Shown here in pieces: positions 556 to 49,719 of a stretch of DNA of 64,000 bases. Below the pieces are notes generated by a model. It searched no databases, was not told where the DNA came from, and saw only the letters and a program-made list of their open reading frames with translations. Numbering within the stretch: the stretch's first letter is position 1; each line of letters starts with the position of its first letter. The stretch comes from an uncultured Bacteroidales bacterium (lineage in GTDB: Bacteria > Bacteroidota > Bacteroidia > Bacteroidales > UBA932): NCBI GenBank assembly GCA_947168525.1, contig CAMVMG010000003.1, forward strand, positions 93,823-157,822. Reading direction: 5' to 3'. The translations under genes were made by a program, and so were the position numbers.

Positions 556-3435
556 CTATAGGGTATTATGTAAATATTTGGCAGTAAATGTATCGTCTTT
601 GGCCGCCAGGTCTTCGGGCGTTCCGGCGAACACCACTTCCCCGCCCTTGTCTCCGGCATCCGGACCCAGGTCGATCACCCAGTCGGCACTGCGGATTACT
701 TCCAAATTGTGTTCCACTACCACCACCGTATGCCCTTTCGCAATCAGGACATCGAAGGCTTTCAGTAGTTTTTCCACATCGAAGAAATGCAGGCCCGTCG
801 TGGGTTCGTCGAACAGGAAGAGAATCTTTTCCCGGCCACCCTCTGCCAGCGACAGGAAATAGGCCAATTTAATCCGCTGGCTTTCGCCACCGGAAAGTGT
901 GCTGGAAGGCTGTCCCAGCTTGATATATCCCAGCCCCACATCTACCAGAGGCTGCAGTTTGACGGCGATGGACCGGGCGACGTCTTCTTTCTGGGCGCCG
1001 AAAAAGGCGATAGCCTCCTCTACGCTCATATTCAGGATGTCGTCCACATTCTTCCCCTTGTAGCGAACTTCCAGGATATCCGGCTTGAAGCGCTTGCCTC
1101 CGCAGGATTCGCACACCATGGTGACATCGGCCATGAACTGCATGCCGATCTTCACGAAACCGTCGCCCTGGCAGTCCGGGCAGCGCCCGCCGTCCTGGTT
1201 GAAGGAAAAATAGGAGGGCGTGAACCCGTTGATCCGGGCAAACGGCTCTTCGCTGAGGAGTTTCCGGATATCGTCATAGACTTTGAGGTATGTGACGGCA
1301 TTGGAGCGGGAACTCTTGCCGATGGGATTCTGGTCTACATATTCCACGCGGGTGATACGGCTGAGGTCGCCAGAGAGACCCTTGAAGGTACCGGGAAGGT
1401 CTCCGGTCTCATTGATGCGCCTGTGCAGCGCCGGATACAGGATATCCCCTACCAGCGAGCTTTTTCCGCTGCCGCTTACGCCACTCACTACGGTGAGGGC
1501 GTTCAGCGGGAAGGTGACATCGATATCCTTGAGGTTGTTCTGCATGGCCCCGTTCACGGTAATCCCGTACTGCCAGGGATTCTTCGTGCGCACATAGGGC
1601 TGACGGATCCCCTTCAGGTACTGCAGGGTAAGGGAACGCTCCGTCTCAGCGGCGGTTTCCTCCCCCACCACCCCCTGGAAGACCACCTCGCCGCCGTTGA
1701 TACCGGCTTTGGGGCCCAGGTCGATCAGGCAGTCGGCCGCGCGGATGATTTCCGGATCGTGCTCCACCACTACAACCGTGTTGCCGATATCCCTGAGGCG
1801 CTTGAGCACCGCAATCAGGCGATCGGTGTCCCGGGGATGCAGGCCGATGGAAGGCTCGTCCAGAATATACAGGGAGCCCACCAGGGAGCTACCCAGGGCA
1901 GTTACCAGGTTTACCCGCTGGCTCTCACCGCCGGACAGGGTGTTCATGGTGCGGCTTAGCGTCAGGTACCCCAGCCCCACGTCCTGGATGCATTGCAGCC
2001 GGTAGACAATCTCCTCGATGGCCTTGCCGGCCACCTGACGCTCATATTCCGTGAGCTGCACTTCCTGGAAAAAGGCCAGCAGGCGCTCCACATCCATCGA
2101 CAGCAGGTCATGGATGGTCTTTCCGCCCACCTTTACGTACAGCGCTTCTTTCCGGAGCCGGCTTCCGCCGCAAGCATGGCAGGTGGTGCGGCCGCTGTAT
2201 CGGCTGAGCATATATTTGTACTGGATTTTGTAGCGGTTGCTCTCCACCCATTCGAAGAATTCGTTGATGCCGCAGATGGTGGTTTCGTCCGGGAAATTAC
2301 TGCGGGCCTCCCAGAGCGTACGCTTCTGCTCATCGGTAAGCTTGCAATACGGTTCGAAGATGGGAATGCCGTACTTTTCGGAATTTTTCACCACCAGGTC
2401 CTTGAACCAGCTCATCTTCTCCCCTCTCCAGCAGGCGATGGCGCCGTCGTAGATGCTCTTGGTCTTGTCCGGCACCACCAGGTCTTCGCTGATGCCCACG
2501 ATCTTTCCCAGACCACCGCACACCGGGCAGGCTCCCAGCGGGCTGTTGAAACTGAACAGGTATTCGTCCGGCTCTCGGAACACAATCCCGTCCAGTTCAA
2601 ATCTCGAGCAGAAGCGTCGGAGCCCGGAGGCGGCCTCCCTTTCTTCCGCGTCGCTTCGCGACCCTGTACGGGAAAATGCTCCAGAAAGGGAGGCCGCCTC
2701 CGGACTCCAAAGGGCCATATCGCCGTTTCCTTTGTCAAAAGCGGTCTGGATGGAGGCATGCAGGCGGGTTCGGAGATCTTCATCCAACGTGCCACCCGTC
2801 TTCACACGGTCCACCAGGAGCCAGAGGTTCCCGGGGTAATTCCCATCCATCCGCAGCACGTCCTCGATCGGGAGAATGTTGCCGTCGGCCCCGTTGAAAA
2901 GACGGCCGAAACCCTCTTCCTTGAGGCTCAGCATCAACTCCACCCGGTCGCTGCGGCCTTCCCAGTGAAGGTCGGCGAGGATATAGAAAACATGAGGCCG
3001 CCCGTCGTCGATGACCTCCAGCACATCCTGCACCGAATGGGCCTTCACCTCCTTCCCGCTCACAGGAGAGAAGGTCCGGCCGATCCGGGCAAACAGAATC
3101 CTGAGATAGTCATAGATTTCCGTGGTGGTAGCCACCGTGGAGCGCGGATTCCGGATATTCACCTTCTGCTCGATGGCGATGGCAGGAGGAATGCCGTCAA
3201 TCGCTTCCACGTCCGGTTTCACCATCCTGCCCAGGAACTGCCGGGCATAGGAGGACAGGCTTTCCGCAAAGCGGCGCTGGCCCTCGGCAAAGAGCGTGTC
3301 AAAGGCCAGCGAAGATTTACCGCTGCCGGATATGCCGGTTACCACGACAAGCCGGTTCCGGGGAATTTCCACGGTGATATCCTTCAGGTTGTTCACCTTG
3401 GCTTTTCTGATGACGATATTTCCTTCTGTGGGCAT
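556..3435 (-). CDS. uvrA: Excinuclease ABC subunit A
   Basis: Two ABC ATPase modules (GISGSGKSS and GVSGSGKSS; LSGGESQR twice) with CxxC zinc fingers (CPVCGG, CHACGG, CPDCQG). Confidence 0.97.
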   Translation of the reverse strand: MPTEGNIVIRKAKVNNLKDITVEIPRNRLVVVTGISGSGKSSLAFDTLFAEGQRRFAESLSSYARQFLGRMVKPDVEAIDGIPPAIAIEQKVNIRNPRSTVATTTEIYDYLRILFARIGRTFSPVSGKEVKAHSVQDVLEVIDDGRPHVFYILADLHWEGRSDRVELMLSLKEEGFGRLFNGADGNILPIEDVLRMDGNYPGNLWLLVDRVKTGGTLDEDLRTRLHASIQTAFDKGNGDMALWSPEAASLSGAFSRTGSRSDAEEREAASGLRRFCSRFELDGIVFREPDEYLFSFNSPLGACPVCGGLGKIVGISEDLVVPDKTKSIYDGAIACWRGEKMSWFKDLVVKNSEKYGIPIFEPYCKLTDEQKRTLWEARSNFPDETTICGINEFFEWVESNRYKIQYKYMLSRYSGRTTCHACGGSRLRKEALYVKVGGKTIHDLLSMDVERLLAFFQEVQLTEYERQVAGKAIEEIVYRLQCIQDVGLGYLTLSRTMNTLSGGESQRVNLVTALGSSLVGSLYILDEPSIGLHPRDTDRLIAVLKRLRDIGNTVVVVEHDPEIIRAADCLIDLGPKAGINGGEVVFQGVVGEETAAETERSLTLQYLKGIRQPYVRTKNPWQYGITVNGAMQNNLKDIDVTFPLNALTVVSGVSGSGKSSLVGDILYPALHRRINETGDLPGTFKGLSGDLSRITRVEYVDQNPIGKSSRSNAVTYLKVYDDIRKLLSEEPFARINGFTPSYFSFNQDGGRCPDCQGDGFVKIGMQFMADVTMVCESCGGKRFKPDILEVRYKGKNVDDILNMSVEEAIAFFGAQKEDVARSIAVKLQPLVDVGLGYIKLGQPSSTLSGGESQRIKLAYFLSLAEGGREKILFLFDEPTTGLHFFDVEKLLKAFDVLIAKGHTVVVVEHNLEVIRSADWVIDLGPDAGDKGGEVVFAGTPEDLAAKDDTFTAKYLHNTL
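2619..2708. repeat. 90-bp palindromic element inside the uvrA reading frame
   Basis: Perfect 21-bp inverted repeat CCGGAGGCGGCCTCCCTTTCT (2624-2644) / AGAAAGGGAGGCCGCCTCCGG (2683-2703), extended by GGAG/CTCC after one mismatch. Inner mini-hairpins GTCGC-TTC-GCGAC and CCC-TGTAC-GGG. Confidence 0.9.
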
Positions 3436-19521: not shown

Positions 19522-19657
19522 CCAAGTGCAAAAACCGCCCAAAATGCACTTGGCAGCCACCAAACTGCCCGGCCCAAGTGCAAAAACCGCCCAAAATGCA
19601 CTTGGTAAGCACCAAACTGCCCGGTCCAAGTGCAAAATCGACCTAAAATGCACTTGA
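19522..19657. repeat. REP-like tandem palindrome array A-left (3 units, 52-bp period)
   Basis: CCAAGTGCA-14 nt-TGCACTTGG units start at 19522, 19574 and 19626, separated by near-identical 20-nt linkers (YARCACCAAACTGCCCGGY-like). Confidence 0.95.
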
Positions 19658-19813
19658 CAAATCGTAAAAAAGAAAACGGATGTTGTCATTATTTCAACCG
19701 AACGGCATTAAAATACAACAAACATCGTAATAAACCGCAAAAAGAGACTTTGGAAGCCTGCCACGCATTTGCAGGAAGAGTAACTGGTCGTTATGTTTGC
19801 AAAAACATGTATT

Positions 19814-20731
19814 ATGAATAAACCGACGGAGTACCAGCTGGAAAGGCTATTTGCCCAGTCCGGACCTTTCTTCCACTTATATACATCGCCCTTGGAGAAC
19901 GATGTCTTGATGGACTGTGACGAAGACCGGACTATAATCCTGAACATGATTGCACTTGTTTCCCGGGAAGCAAACTTGGAAGTTTTGGCCTATGCCTTGA
20001 TGAGCAACCATTTACATATTATCTTCAAAGGCTCCGAGTTAAATGGGAATACCTTCTTTGAACTATTGGCCAAAAGGCTGAAACGATATTTGTCGGGGAA
20101 AGGGAAAGCCAAATGCATTTCAAAGGTTTGCTGCGGGATACAATCCATTACAAGCCTGAGACAGTTCCGGGATGAGATAGCTTATGTTATCCGCAATCCC
20201 TTCGTGGTCCGGGATGACATCAATCTCTTTGCCTATCAATGGTGCAGCGGCTTTCTCTACTTTAATCCTCTTTTGTCTTTCAGGAAGGGTATTCCTGCCG
20301 TAGAAGTCAGTTACCGGGAACGCCGGCGGATTACACGCTCTGCCGATATGGAACTTCCCGAGGGGTTATGGGTATCTGGCGACTTAATTCTCCCGGAGAG
20401 TTTTGTCAATTATCGGCTTGTGGAATCCCTGTTTGGAAGTGCCCGGAAGTTTTTGTTCTGGGTACTGAAAAACGTTGAGGCGCAAGTGGAGTTGGCAAAT
20501 AAGTATGGTGAATCGGTCGGTGTCTCCGACGATGAGATGTTCCAGTTGTCCAGGCAAATGTGTGAAAAACAATTTGGCGTCAAAACTCCGCAGGATTTGC
20601 CGGAATCGCAGCAGAAAGAACTCGCCATTTTGCTCCGGAACCGTTACCAAGCCTCGAACGCTCAATTATGCCGATTAACCGGCCTTTCCAAATCCAAGAT
20701 TGACACACTTTATCCCCTTTCCACCAGATAA
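19814..20731 (+). mobile_element. HUH/Y1 tyrosine transposase, REP-associated (RAYT-like)
   Basis: HUH motif in LAYALMSNHLHII, catalytic Tyr candidate in AYVIRNP, YQWCSG, and a C-terminal HTH-like segment (AQLCRLTGLS). Visibly more AT-rich than its neighbours; flanked by palindrome arrays. Confidence 0.85.
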
Positions 20732-20742
20732 AACACGGATTG

Positions 20743-21034
20743 CCAAGTGCAAAAACCGCCCAAAATGCACTTGGCAGCCACCAAACTGCCCGGCCCAAGT
20801 GCAAAAACCGCCCAAAATGCACTTGGTAAGCACCAAACTGCCCGGACCAAGTGCAAAATCGGCCCAAAATGCACTTGGTAAGCACCAAACTGCCCGGTCC
20901 AAGTGCAAAAACCGCCCAAAATGCACTTGGTAAGCACCAAACGGCCCGGCCCAAGTGCAAAATCGGCCCAAAATGCACTTGGTAACCACCAAACTGCCCG
21001 GTCCAAGTGCAAAATCGGCCCAAAATGCACTTGG
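20743..21034. repeat. REP-like tandem palindrome array A-right (6 units, 52-bp period)
   Basis: Units start at 20743, 20795, 20847, 20899, 20951 and 21003; same sequence and orientation as A-left. Confidence 0.95.
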
Positions 21035-33015: not shown

Positions 33016-33146
33016 GTCCACGAAAACGTCCTAATACGTGGACGAACCATGTAAATAACGCTCTCCGTCCACGAAAATGGCCAAAAACGTGGACGAACCA
33101 TGAAAATGACGCTCTCCGTCCACGAAAACGGCCTAAAACGTGGACG
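33016..33146. repeat. REP-like tandem palindrome array B (3 units, 51-bp period)
   Basis: (C)GTCCACG-14 nt-CGTGGACG with GTCCACG at 33016, 33067 and 33118; loops AAAACGTCCTAATA, AAAATGGCCAAAAA and AAAACGGCCTAAAA. Confidence 0.92.
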
Positions 33147-49673: not shown

Positions 49674-49719
49674 AAAATTACGGGATTTCTTGCAACTTTG
49701 CAGGAAATCCCGTAATTTT
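49674..49719. promoter_or_regulatory. Long inverted repeat overlapping the tRNA-Ala promoter
   Basis: AAAATTACGGGATTTCTTGCA-ACTT-TGCAGGAAATCCCGTAATTTT (21-bp arms, one mismatch); the right arm carries TAATTTTG. Confidence 0.65.

Follow-up and report, generated by a model that had tools for sequence, protein, structure and literature searches.

A palindromic element inside uvrA of an uncultured Bacteroidales bacterium probably belongs to a dispersed protein-coding repeat family of ruminant-gut relatives

Palindromic DNA elements that become part of protein-coding genes have so far been treated as a peculiarity of Rickettsia, together with scattered intragenic repetitive extragenic palindromes (REPs). 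The Rickettsia palindromic elements RPE-1 to RPE-10 (RPEs; Ogata et al. 2000, 2002) are, according to the accounts cited here, dispersed hairpin repeats located in frame in housekeeping genes, with no transposase known (PMC10969869, PMC2229807). For intragenic REPs tagged by GTAG or CGTC, Di Nocera et al. 2013 listed among the hosts the uvrA genes of Opitutus terrae and Thioalkalivibrio as well as further genes for replication and repair (PMC3733652). Bacterial MITEs (transposable elements of the miniature inverted-repeat type; Correia/NEMIS, ERIC, RUP, QMITE) are small, non-autonomous and hairpin-forming and are sometimes fused in frame to open reading frames (ORFs) (PMC10969869). The recoding intragenic invertons of Bacteroides described by Chanin et al. 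are single-locus and enzyme-mediated, and their flipping was seen within cultures (PMC10028968). In the literature searched we found no description of such elements in Bacteroidales. Here we characterise a hairpin-forming element located inside uvrA on a 64,000-nt stretch of contig CAMVMG010000003.1 (hereafter the window) from an uncultured Bacteroidales bacterium. We consider it likely that this hairpin belongs, as one copy, to a dispersed family of palindromic repeats that code for protein and are restricted to Bacteroidales of the ruminant gut.

The inverted repeat in uvrA and its dispersed relatives

The inverted repeat occupies positions 2619-2708 of the window. Its arms (2619-2644 and 2683-2708) are 26 nt each with one mismatch, the inner 21 bp are perfect, and 38 nt separate the two. 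The original prediction, made from the sequence alone, had described the repeat in this way and the repeat search bore it out; no other short-range inverted repeat within the 64 kb is as long. The two proposed mini-hairpins, one of them GTC-GCGAAGC-GAC on the coding strand, can both be read in the sequence and in the fold, as the coding (minus) strand reads ...CCCGTACAGGG-TCGCGAAGCGA.... The RNA of this strand folds with -74.7 kcal/mol (z = -7.3) and the DNA with z = -7.0, and none of 200 shuffles did as well in either case. The arm does not recur elsewhere in the window, shuffled windows never gave such a match, and the arm consensus without the core has no match within the 64 kb.

The outermost ~5 bp of the stem (GGAGY/RCTCC) are present also in the element-free relatives L003 and L007, and element-free alleles retain TGGAGCCC...GGGCT. 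To judge from these alleles, the outer ~5 bp at either side probably belong to the host and extend the stem by chance, and because they occur in element-free alleles we take the element proper to be ~76-80 nt long (the 38-nt core with arms of 19-21 bp). A near-identical empty uvrA allele was sought, the nearest metagenome relative being 90 % identical and filled; as none was found, the boundaries of the element are approximate. The element had been said to span exactly 30 codons. It is indeed 90 nt long, but it is out of register with the codons, its first base being base 2 of the Trp243 codon. As claimed, residues 244-273 read SPEAASLSGAFSRTGSRSDAEEREAASGLR, but the net gain over insert-free UvrA orthologues amounts only to 23-25 residues, not 30.

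We searched for the 38-nt segment between the arms, the core, by an exact scan with 28 of its 38 nt in one genome per species (185,579 species). The core was found at 53 loci, all of them in metagenome-assembled genomes (MAGs) of uncultured Bacteroidales from deer, reindeer, buffalo, goat and cattle, and the scan recovered it from no other taxon. The MAG RGIG5001 alone holds 11 core loci. Carriage by phages was looked for as well, with 0 core matches in viral contigs. Further copies of the element, which had been anticipated, thus exist in related genomes, and nearly all are intragenic. In contigs of rumen metagenomes the summed depth of the core reaches 880-1315x, compared with 5-33x over most of uvrA upstream of the element; the uvrA stretch directly downstream of it has 0-10x, and many distinct flanks meet at the arm boundaries. 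In public rumen and gut contigs the depth of the core (window 2636-2683) is 40-100x that of its flanks, and within the element Logan contigs of the window strain come to an end. These repeats fragment rumen assemblies.

A gap-free alignment of 44 distinct copies revealed the anatomy of the family. Each element consists of a nearly invariant 38-nt core with two mini-hairpins and of 19-22-bp arms, which vary in sequence but remain complementary. In the core 31 columns are invariant and five more are at least 90 % conserved, and 64 of 65 copies have 0-2 mismatches, a conservation that is partly due to ascertainment because 28 of the 38 nt served as the search pattern. The 20 arm pairs are 96.7 % paired, compared with 66.7 % in shuffles, and show double changes without exception; their covariation score of 0.856 versus 0.245 was reached by 0 of 500 shuffles. 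The arm ends are the most variable part of the element. G:U pairs make up ~3 % in the arms and are no commoner than other mismatches, from which we conclude that complementarity is maintained at the DNA level. We also considered that each arm could itself be a REP-like hairpin, making the element a BIME-like dimer, and rejected this as the main structure (66.5 % paired versus 63.6 % in shuffles, with little covariation). A search for diverged cores with up to 10 mismatches in all loci examined yielded a single one, with seven mismatches, in L031. At 834-960 of this locus two tandem elements inside FabD share one arm, the upstream core being decayed (7/38) and the downstream one intact. A diverged core copy is present also in the P0074/P0075 pair.

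Host genes, codon phase and the UvrA loop

The genic context was determined for 60 copies, i.e. the window copy and 59 in the loci, with ORFs confirmed by Pfam. Fifty-four of them lie in Pfam-verified genes from 27 families. The hosts act in replication, repair and translation (UvrA, MetRS, CysRS, DnaG, DnaX (tau/gamma), RsmH, SpoU methylase), in envelope and lipid synthesis (Mur ligase, FabD, ketoacyl synthase, LpxK, LptF/G, DapF, UDP-glucose dehydrogenase, WbqC, YfhO, a LysM protein) and in energy metabolism and transport (ATP synthase a and gamma (AtpB/G), two MFS transporters, FMN-binding and 4Fe-4S proteins); the remainder are proteases and others (ClpP, peptidases M16 and M20, alpha-2-macroglobulin (A2M) at three sites, prephenate dehydrogenase, DUF3575). 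L024 is the only clearly intergenic copy among the 60, and four more are unverified.

All 54 verified copies have a core that begins on the first base of a codon (phase 0). The forward (F) orientation, seen in 18 copies, encodes GAFARTGSRSDAE and the reverse (R) orientation, seen in 36, encodes SASLRDPVRANAP. The sole exception is L052 (5780-5807), a decayed copy in phase 2 within a DUF6259 protein, with mismatched inner arms. As ~30 independent sites share one phase out of three, this cannot be attributed to chance, and because of the nearly constant phase the element is translated as ~25 hydrophilic residues in either orientation. Stop codons were rejected as the source of the rule, since all six frames of the consensus element are stop-free. 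The phase 0 peptides, EGDTLS-GAFARTGSRSDAE-ERVSPS and EGDTLS-SASLRDPVRANAP-ERVSPS, are hydrophilic and slightly acidic, while the other phases encode basic, aromatic or Cys-containing peptides. Moreover, phase 0 alone pairs third codon positions with third positions across the stem, and all 12 core wobble sites (12/12) are then common to both orientations. From the peptide character and the coincidence of wobble positions it follows that hairpin upkeep, core inversion and a harmless peptide are in least conflict in phase 0. We infer that the phase rule is a survivorship filter rather than a property of insertion. Around 51 verified copies (60 codons on each side) we noticed a weak asymmetry of G/C skew at silent sites, with GC3 skew over codons 10-30 of -0.32 and -0.24 upstream versus 0.00 and -0.05 downstream.

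At the UvrA site the comparison was made with 32 aligned Bacteroidales UvrA proteins, and 120 were tabulated. The gap predicted for orthologues lies exactly at the insert: P0009, P0010 and P0012 have 7 residues there and P0084 has 5, compared with 30 in the window. The site follows GDMALW and is short, 5-11 residues, in many relatives; where it is filled, ~30 residues are present that read either ...SGAFARTGSRSDAEE... or ...SASLRDPVRANAP..., and DNA from seven relatives traces both versions to one and the same 38-nt core, placed in opposite orientations between like arms. Other relatives carry unrelated low-complexity inserts at the site (MPGQAGHD/VMADSDRPS, RGQSPLK, GPGPKS and others). At least 21 site-state changes are needed on the UvrA tree of 49 proteins, in which the window UvrA (P0001, core F) is sister to P0002 (core R) with 100 % support and 95 % identity. 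Among uvrA alleles, L067, L068 and L105 have like arms and different loops, and those of the L061 type resemble central deletions. L039, from Bacteroidales bacterium UBA3764, is a half-element, its left arm having been lost through an in-frame 18-nt deletion between GGAG direct repeats; its core is F, and that of the close relative L005, with an identical right arm, is R. The UvrA site after GDMALW is a hotspot for several palindrome families.

Other palindromic insert families in the same turn are MPGQAGHD / VMADSDRPS, RGQSPLKEE, GPGPKSxW and ESVATLGRVRGRGP (P0021, P0023, P0032, P0042, P0094 etc.; loci L067-L121). The near-identical sisters P0021 and P0027 differ by a 63-residue insert versus an empty site. 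Two more UvrA positions, ~458 and ~590 of the window protein (alignment columns ~585-640 and ~766-810), bear palindrome-type inserts in relatives (TLAPSGLGMT, MPGQAGHD, VMAGSDRPS), none of which is present in the window gene.

The host protein is a clear UvrA. It scores 1004 bits against the equivalog NCBIfam TIGR00630 (cut-off 730), matches the UvrA structures 3pih (E = 9e-246) and 2r6f, both with E < 1e-230, and its nucleotide-binding (ATPase) motifs are intact. An AlphaFold2 model built from a UvrA alignment had a mean pLDDT (predicted local distance difference test) of 66, with ~85 in the UvrB-binding domain and values below 50 for insert residues 248-269. The model shows the insert as a disordered loop that lies between two strands, in a hairpin turn where the UvrB-binding domain ends, in agreement with the surface loop that had been expected. 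In the alignment with Thermotoga maritima UvrA (3pih) it falls in the turn immediately before the second half of zinc module 1. Insert-bearing uvrA alleles stay in frame across lineages that are 78-95 % identical. The economical reading is that the insert would be a tolerated surface loop, and UvrA function is probably unaffected by it. Metatranscriptome contigs contain the core with arms and flanks, which indicates that the element is transcribed and not spliced out, although DNA carry-over is possible in these data. UvrA of the window lineage lacks the four cysteines of zinc module 1, with RTFSPVSG and RFCSRFE in place of the HCPECG and MCPVCG of T. maritima. The degenerate module comprises residues ~120-127 and ~274-279 of the window protein and is directly adjoined by the palindromic inserts.

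The features of the uvrA locus are given in Table 1. Elsewhere in the window, at 49674-49719, lies a near-perfect 22-nt palindrome whose spacer is 2 nt long (AAAATTACGGGATTTCTTGCAA / TTGCAGGAAATCCCGTAATTTT); it has no relation to the uvrA element.

Table 1. Coordinates of uvrA and of the parts of its palindromic element in the window
Feature	Position	Strand	Basis and remarks
uvrA, 959 aa, host of the element	556..3435	-	ORF and translation, TIGR00630, PDB matches
UvrA codons 244-273	2617..2706	-	Coil between strands 239-243 and 272-276; AlphaFold2 model, 3pih alignment
Whole inverted repeat	2619..2708	-	26-nt arms and 38-nt core; repeat search, fold z ~ -7
Left arm, coding orientation CCGGAGGCGGCCTCCCTTTCT	2683..2703	-	Translated P-E-A-A-S-L-S
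38-nt conserved core, coding strand GGAGCATTTTCCCGTACAGGGTCGCGAAGCGACGCGGA	2645..2682	-	F orientation, codon phase 0, translated GAFSRTGSRSDAE; pattern search, family alignment, frame table
Mini-hairpin 1 of core, CCC-GTACA-GGG	2662..2672	-	Sequence and fold
Mini-hairpin 2 of core, GTCGC-GAA-GCGAC, contains d(GCGAAGC)	2650..2662	-	Sequence and fold
Right arm, coding orientation AGAAAGGGAGGCCGCCTCCGG	2624..2644	-	Translated (E)-E-R-E-A-A-S-G

Drifting arms, flipping cores and their possible causes

Arms at orthologous sites are specific to the site and are inherited with the host gene, and their divergence roughly keeps pace with that of the gene around them. Arm identity is 82 % and flank identity 86-89 % between the window and L001 (uvrA), 86-91 % and 87-92 % between L029 and L032 (A2M), 91-95 % and 81-88 % between L022 and L013 (MetRS), and 59-64 % and 82 % between L006 and L004 (uvrA). 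The core differs at 0-1 of 38 positions in each of these four pairs, and it is inverted in the first and in the MetRS pair. Both core orientations occur between the same arms at six sites (uvrA, A2M, dnaX, metG, atpG and ketoacyl synthase, KAS), from which we conclude that the core inverts in place and that the two orientations do not stem from independent insertions. Orientation is constant within a lineage: L001, L002, L054 and L062 are all R, L013 and L050 are R, and L022 and L042 are F.

Loops between short inverted repeats are known to invert recurrently, small hairpin loops doing so passively, and in quasipalindrome template switching one arm is copied from the other, by which arms are made or kept perfectly complementary. 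We compared the arms in 17 orthologous combinations, which are not mutually independent. Arm pairs had changed on both sides in 97 cases (87 of them Watson-Crick in both orthologues) and on one side in 14. Such an excess of double changes is what copying from arm to arm would give, the alternative being selection on pairing. Within the core, L142 (the uvrA encoding P0074) has mini-hairpin 2 changed from GTCGC/GCGAC to GCTGC/GCAGC by two compensated changes, with the C-GAA-G centre kept, and because these changes are compensated we take the core's own structure to be under constraint.

We favour the explanation that the family is a selfish or neutral passenger. It would spread by a hairpin-forming, probably single-stranded, DNA intermediate, mobilised by an enzyme acting in trans, and selection would have spared only insertions in permissive surface loops at phase 0. 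This phase is the only one in which both peptides are hydrophilic and acidic, and the only one in which wobble positions coincide both between paired arm bases and between core orientations. Complementarity of the arms would be kept mainly by mutation, through template switching within the palindrome that copies one arm from the other, and the core could invert through the same template switching or by recombination between the arms. The idea that a selfish palindromic element of MITE or REP type has been tolerated in UvrA gains support from the copies elsewhere, the gap in orthologues and the disordered loop. The MITE label, however, does not fit well, as neither a target-site duplication nor a parent insertion sequence (IS) was found.

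Several observations weigh against a mere passenger. No transposase, target-site duplication or autonomous parent was found for the element, a tblastn search with a RAYT-like gene of the window revealed no homologue within 8 kb of any copy among the 143 loci examined, and the 64-kb window contains a single copy. A decaying passenger should not retain 38 nt, silent sites included, while its flanks diverge by 10-30 %. This retention extends beyond the search pattern: the 10 core positions outside it are at least 90 % conserved with the exception of one G/T-dimorphic position, and in UvrA samples retrieved by protein all eight clusters typed F or R (8/8) keep the core peptide with at most one change. 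Many intergenic copies would also be expected to survive if insertion were random and purifying selection came afterwards, but only 1-2 of 60 are intergenic, and this near absence suggests that something beyond the survivorship filter is at work.

The 38-nt core could instead be a nucleic-acid signal and no passive passenger, actively kept in ~30 housekeeping genes by a dedicated structure-specific recombinase or HUH-type enzyme, or by continual conversion from active copies, with the same process inverting the core. The family would then consist of phase-locked mini-invertons, spread over the genome, that recode loops of core proteins such as UvrA, DnaX, DnaG, tRNA synthetases and ATP synthase, and its phase would have evolved so that hairpin, inversion and coding constraints share wobble sites. 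We regard this proposal as unlikely.

Somewhat less likely again is a functional intragenic inverton serving the host or served by an enzyme, in which a recombinase or structure-specific enzyme flips the core and toggles the loop isoforms GAFARTGSRSDAE/SASLRDPVRANAP, with the core being conserved for that enzyme. Recoding intragenic invertons are documented in Bacteroides (PMC10028968). Both orientations between the same site-specific arms at six orthologous sites, the conservation of the core at silent sites, the compensated change in its mini-hairpin, and a single phase that leaves both orientations open and wobble sites common would all suit such a system. On the other hand, flips were seen between lineages only and never within a population, in data consisting of contigs only, and the arms, which are the usual place of invertase action, are variable in sequence. 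Loop switching has no obvious use for the hosts, a set of unrelated housekeeping proteins of cytoplasm and membrane; the UvrA site is easily lost or replaced, and small hairpin loops, as mentioned above, invert passively.

A cis-acting RNA structure (an RNase III site, translational pause or thermosensor) tuning uvrA and the other host genes is already disfavoured and seems very improbable. The very stable RNA fold and the presence of the element in metatranscriptome contigs would agree with it. Yet there is no preference for G:U pairs over other mismatches, which places the upkeep of pairing at the DNA level and on both strands, the element occurs in either orientation to transcription (18 F, 36 R), and the host genes form no common regulon. 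The search against Rfam gave no family at threshold and only generic miRNA-type hairpin matches far below the gathering scores, on which ground a known structured RNA was rejected.

The idea that the palindrome arose locally within uvrA, where a variable loop would have undergone quasipalindrome growth or template switching, with no mobility or repetition, is refuted by the same 38-nt core and homologous arms in ~30 other gene sites (53 loci) and by the 40-100x over-representation of the core in metagenome contigs, even though the insert-free L007 already has a small palindrome, AGCCCTGC-G-GCAGGGCT, and the length of the UvrA site varies in all relatives. Finally, the window comes from a metagenome-type assembly and Logan contigs break within the element, but there is next to no chance that the element or its orientation is an assembly artefact at a repeat, as independent JGI, ENA and GTDB MAG assemblies agree on the in-frame structure and, for any one lineage, on the orientation, and the reading frame is always preserved.

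Comparison with described palindromic elements and invertons

The elements have practical consequences: metagenome assemblies break at them, marker proteins (UvrA, MetRS and DnaX among them) vary more in length because of them, and phylogeny and annotation that rely on alignments can be led astray. They also offer a natural system for studying how new peptide segments enter essential proteins, how palindromes persist in coding DNA and at what cost, and whether small intragenic inversions are programmed or accidental.

Compared with bacterial MITEs, the family shares the small size, the hairpin and the fusion in frame with ORFs. None of the other features of MITEs, namely conserved terminal inverted repeats, target-site duplications and, as a rule, a related IS, was found here. 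In particular, no direct repeat flanks the uvrA copy in comparison with insert-free alleles, among which there is no near-identical empty one.

Hairpin-loop inversion and quasipalindrome correction, as in non-coding hairpins of chloroplasts and in E. coli, fit the excess of double changes in the arms (97:14). These are mutational processes and not element families, and they leave dispersal and core conservation unaccounted for. With the recoding invertons of Bacteroides the elements share an intragenic segment between inverted repeats that is open both ways and gives two protein versions, as well as the bacterial order. They differ in forming a repeated family, in the invertible part of only 38 nt, and in flips documented between lineages only.

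There are likenesses also to intragenic REPs and REP dimers and to BIMEs and REPINs with their RAYT transposases. Like the present elements, REPs are palindromes that can lie within ORFs and encode 20-30 residues, and inverted REP pairs likewise form long hairpins with compensatory changes. REPs are mostly extragenic, whereas here L024 alone is clearly so. In addition, REPs have a tag, GTAG or CGTC, that is unpaired, and their conserved stems measure 8-9 bp or longer, whereas in the present family it is the 38-nt loop that is conserved and the stems that vary; the only CGTC lies within mini-hairpin 2 of the core and not as an unpaired end tag (definition from PMC3733652). Hairpins of 52 bp, unrelated to the element, flank the RAYT-like gene of the window (~19.6-20.9 kb). 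A link between RAYT and the element is not supported by these other hairpins, nor by the 143 loci examined, in which the gene has no homologue. At 19522-21034 the gene stands between arrays of CCAAGTGCA...TGCACTTGG hairpins, and a second array follows clpX at 33016-33146. The element has no sequence in common with these RAYT-associated arrays, and was rightly set apart from arrays A and B of the window in the original prediction.

The RPEs offer another parallel. As far as the cited accounts describe them, these are also dispersed multi-copy palindromes with a long hairpin (here 53 loci, up to 11 per MAG, arms 96.7 % paired), lie in frame in conserved genes with a conserved encoded peptide (here 54 of 60 copies genic, all in phase 0) and are tolerated in surface loops. 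By the same accounts the differences are several. The hosts are Bacteroidales only, which belong to a different phylum and are free-living gut anaerobes instead of the obligate intracellular parasite Rickettsia; the uvrA-type element is ~80 nt long versus 105-150 for RPEs; conservation concerns the loop, neither the element as a whole nor its ends; ~90 % of the copies lie in genes versus 19 of 44 for RPE-1; and both orientations are used through in-situ inversion, which sets the family apart from RPEs as described there. Protein-coding palindromes thus appear here in abundant free-living rumen Bacteroidales and in a sharper form than in Rickettsia, with nearly all copies genic, nearly all in one phase, and an invariant core that flips while the arms co-evolve with the host gene. 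The element behaves like RPEs or intragenic REPs and is a member of neither family.

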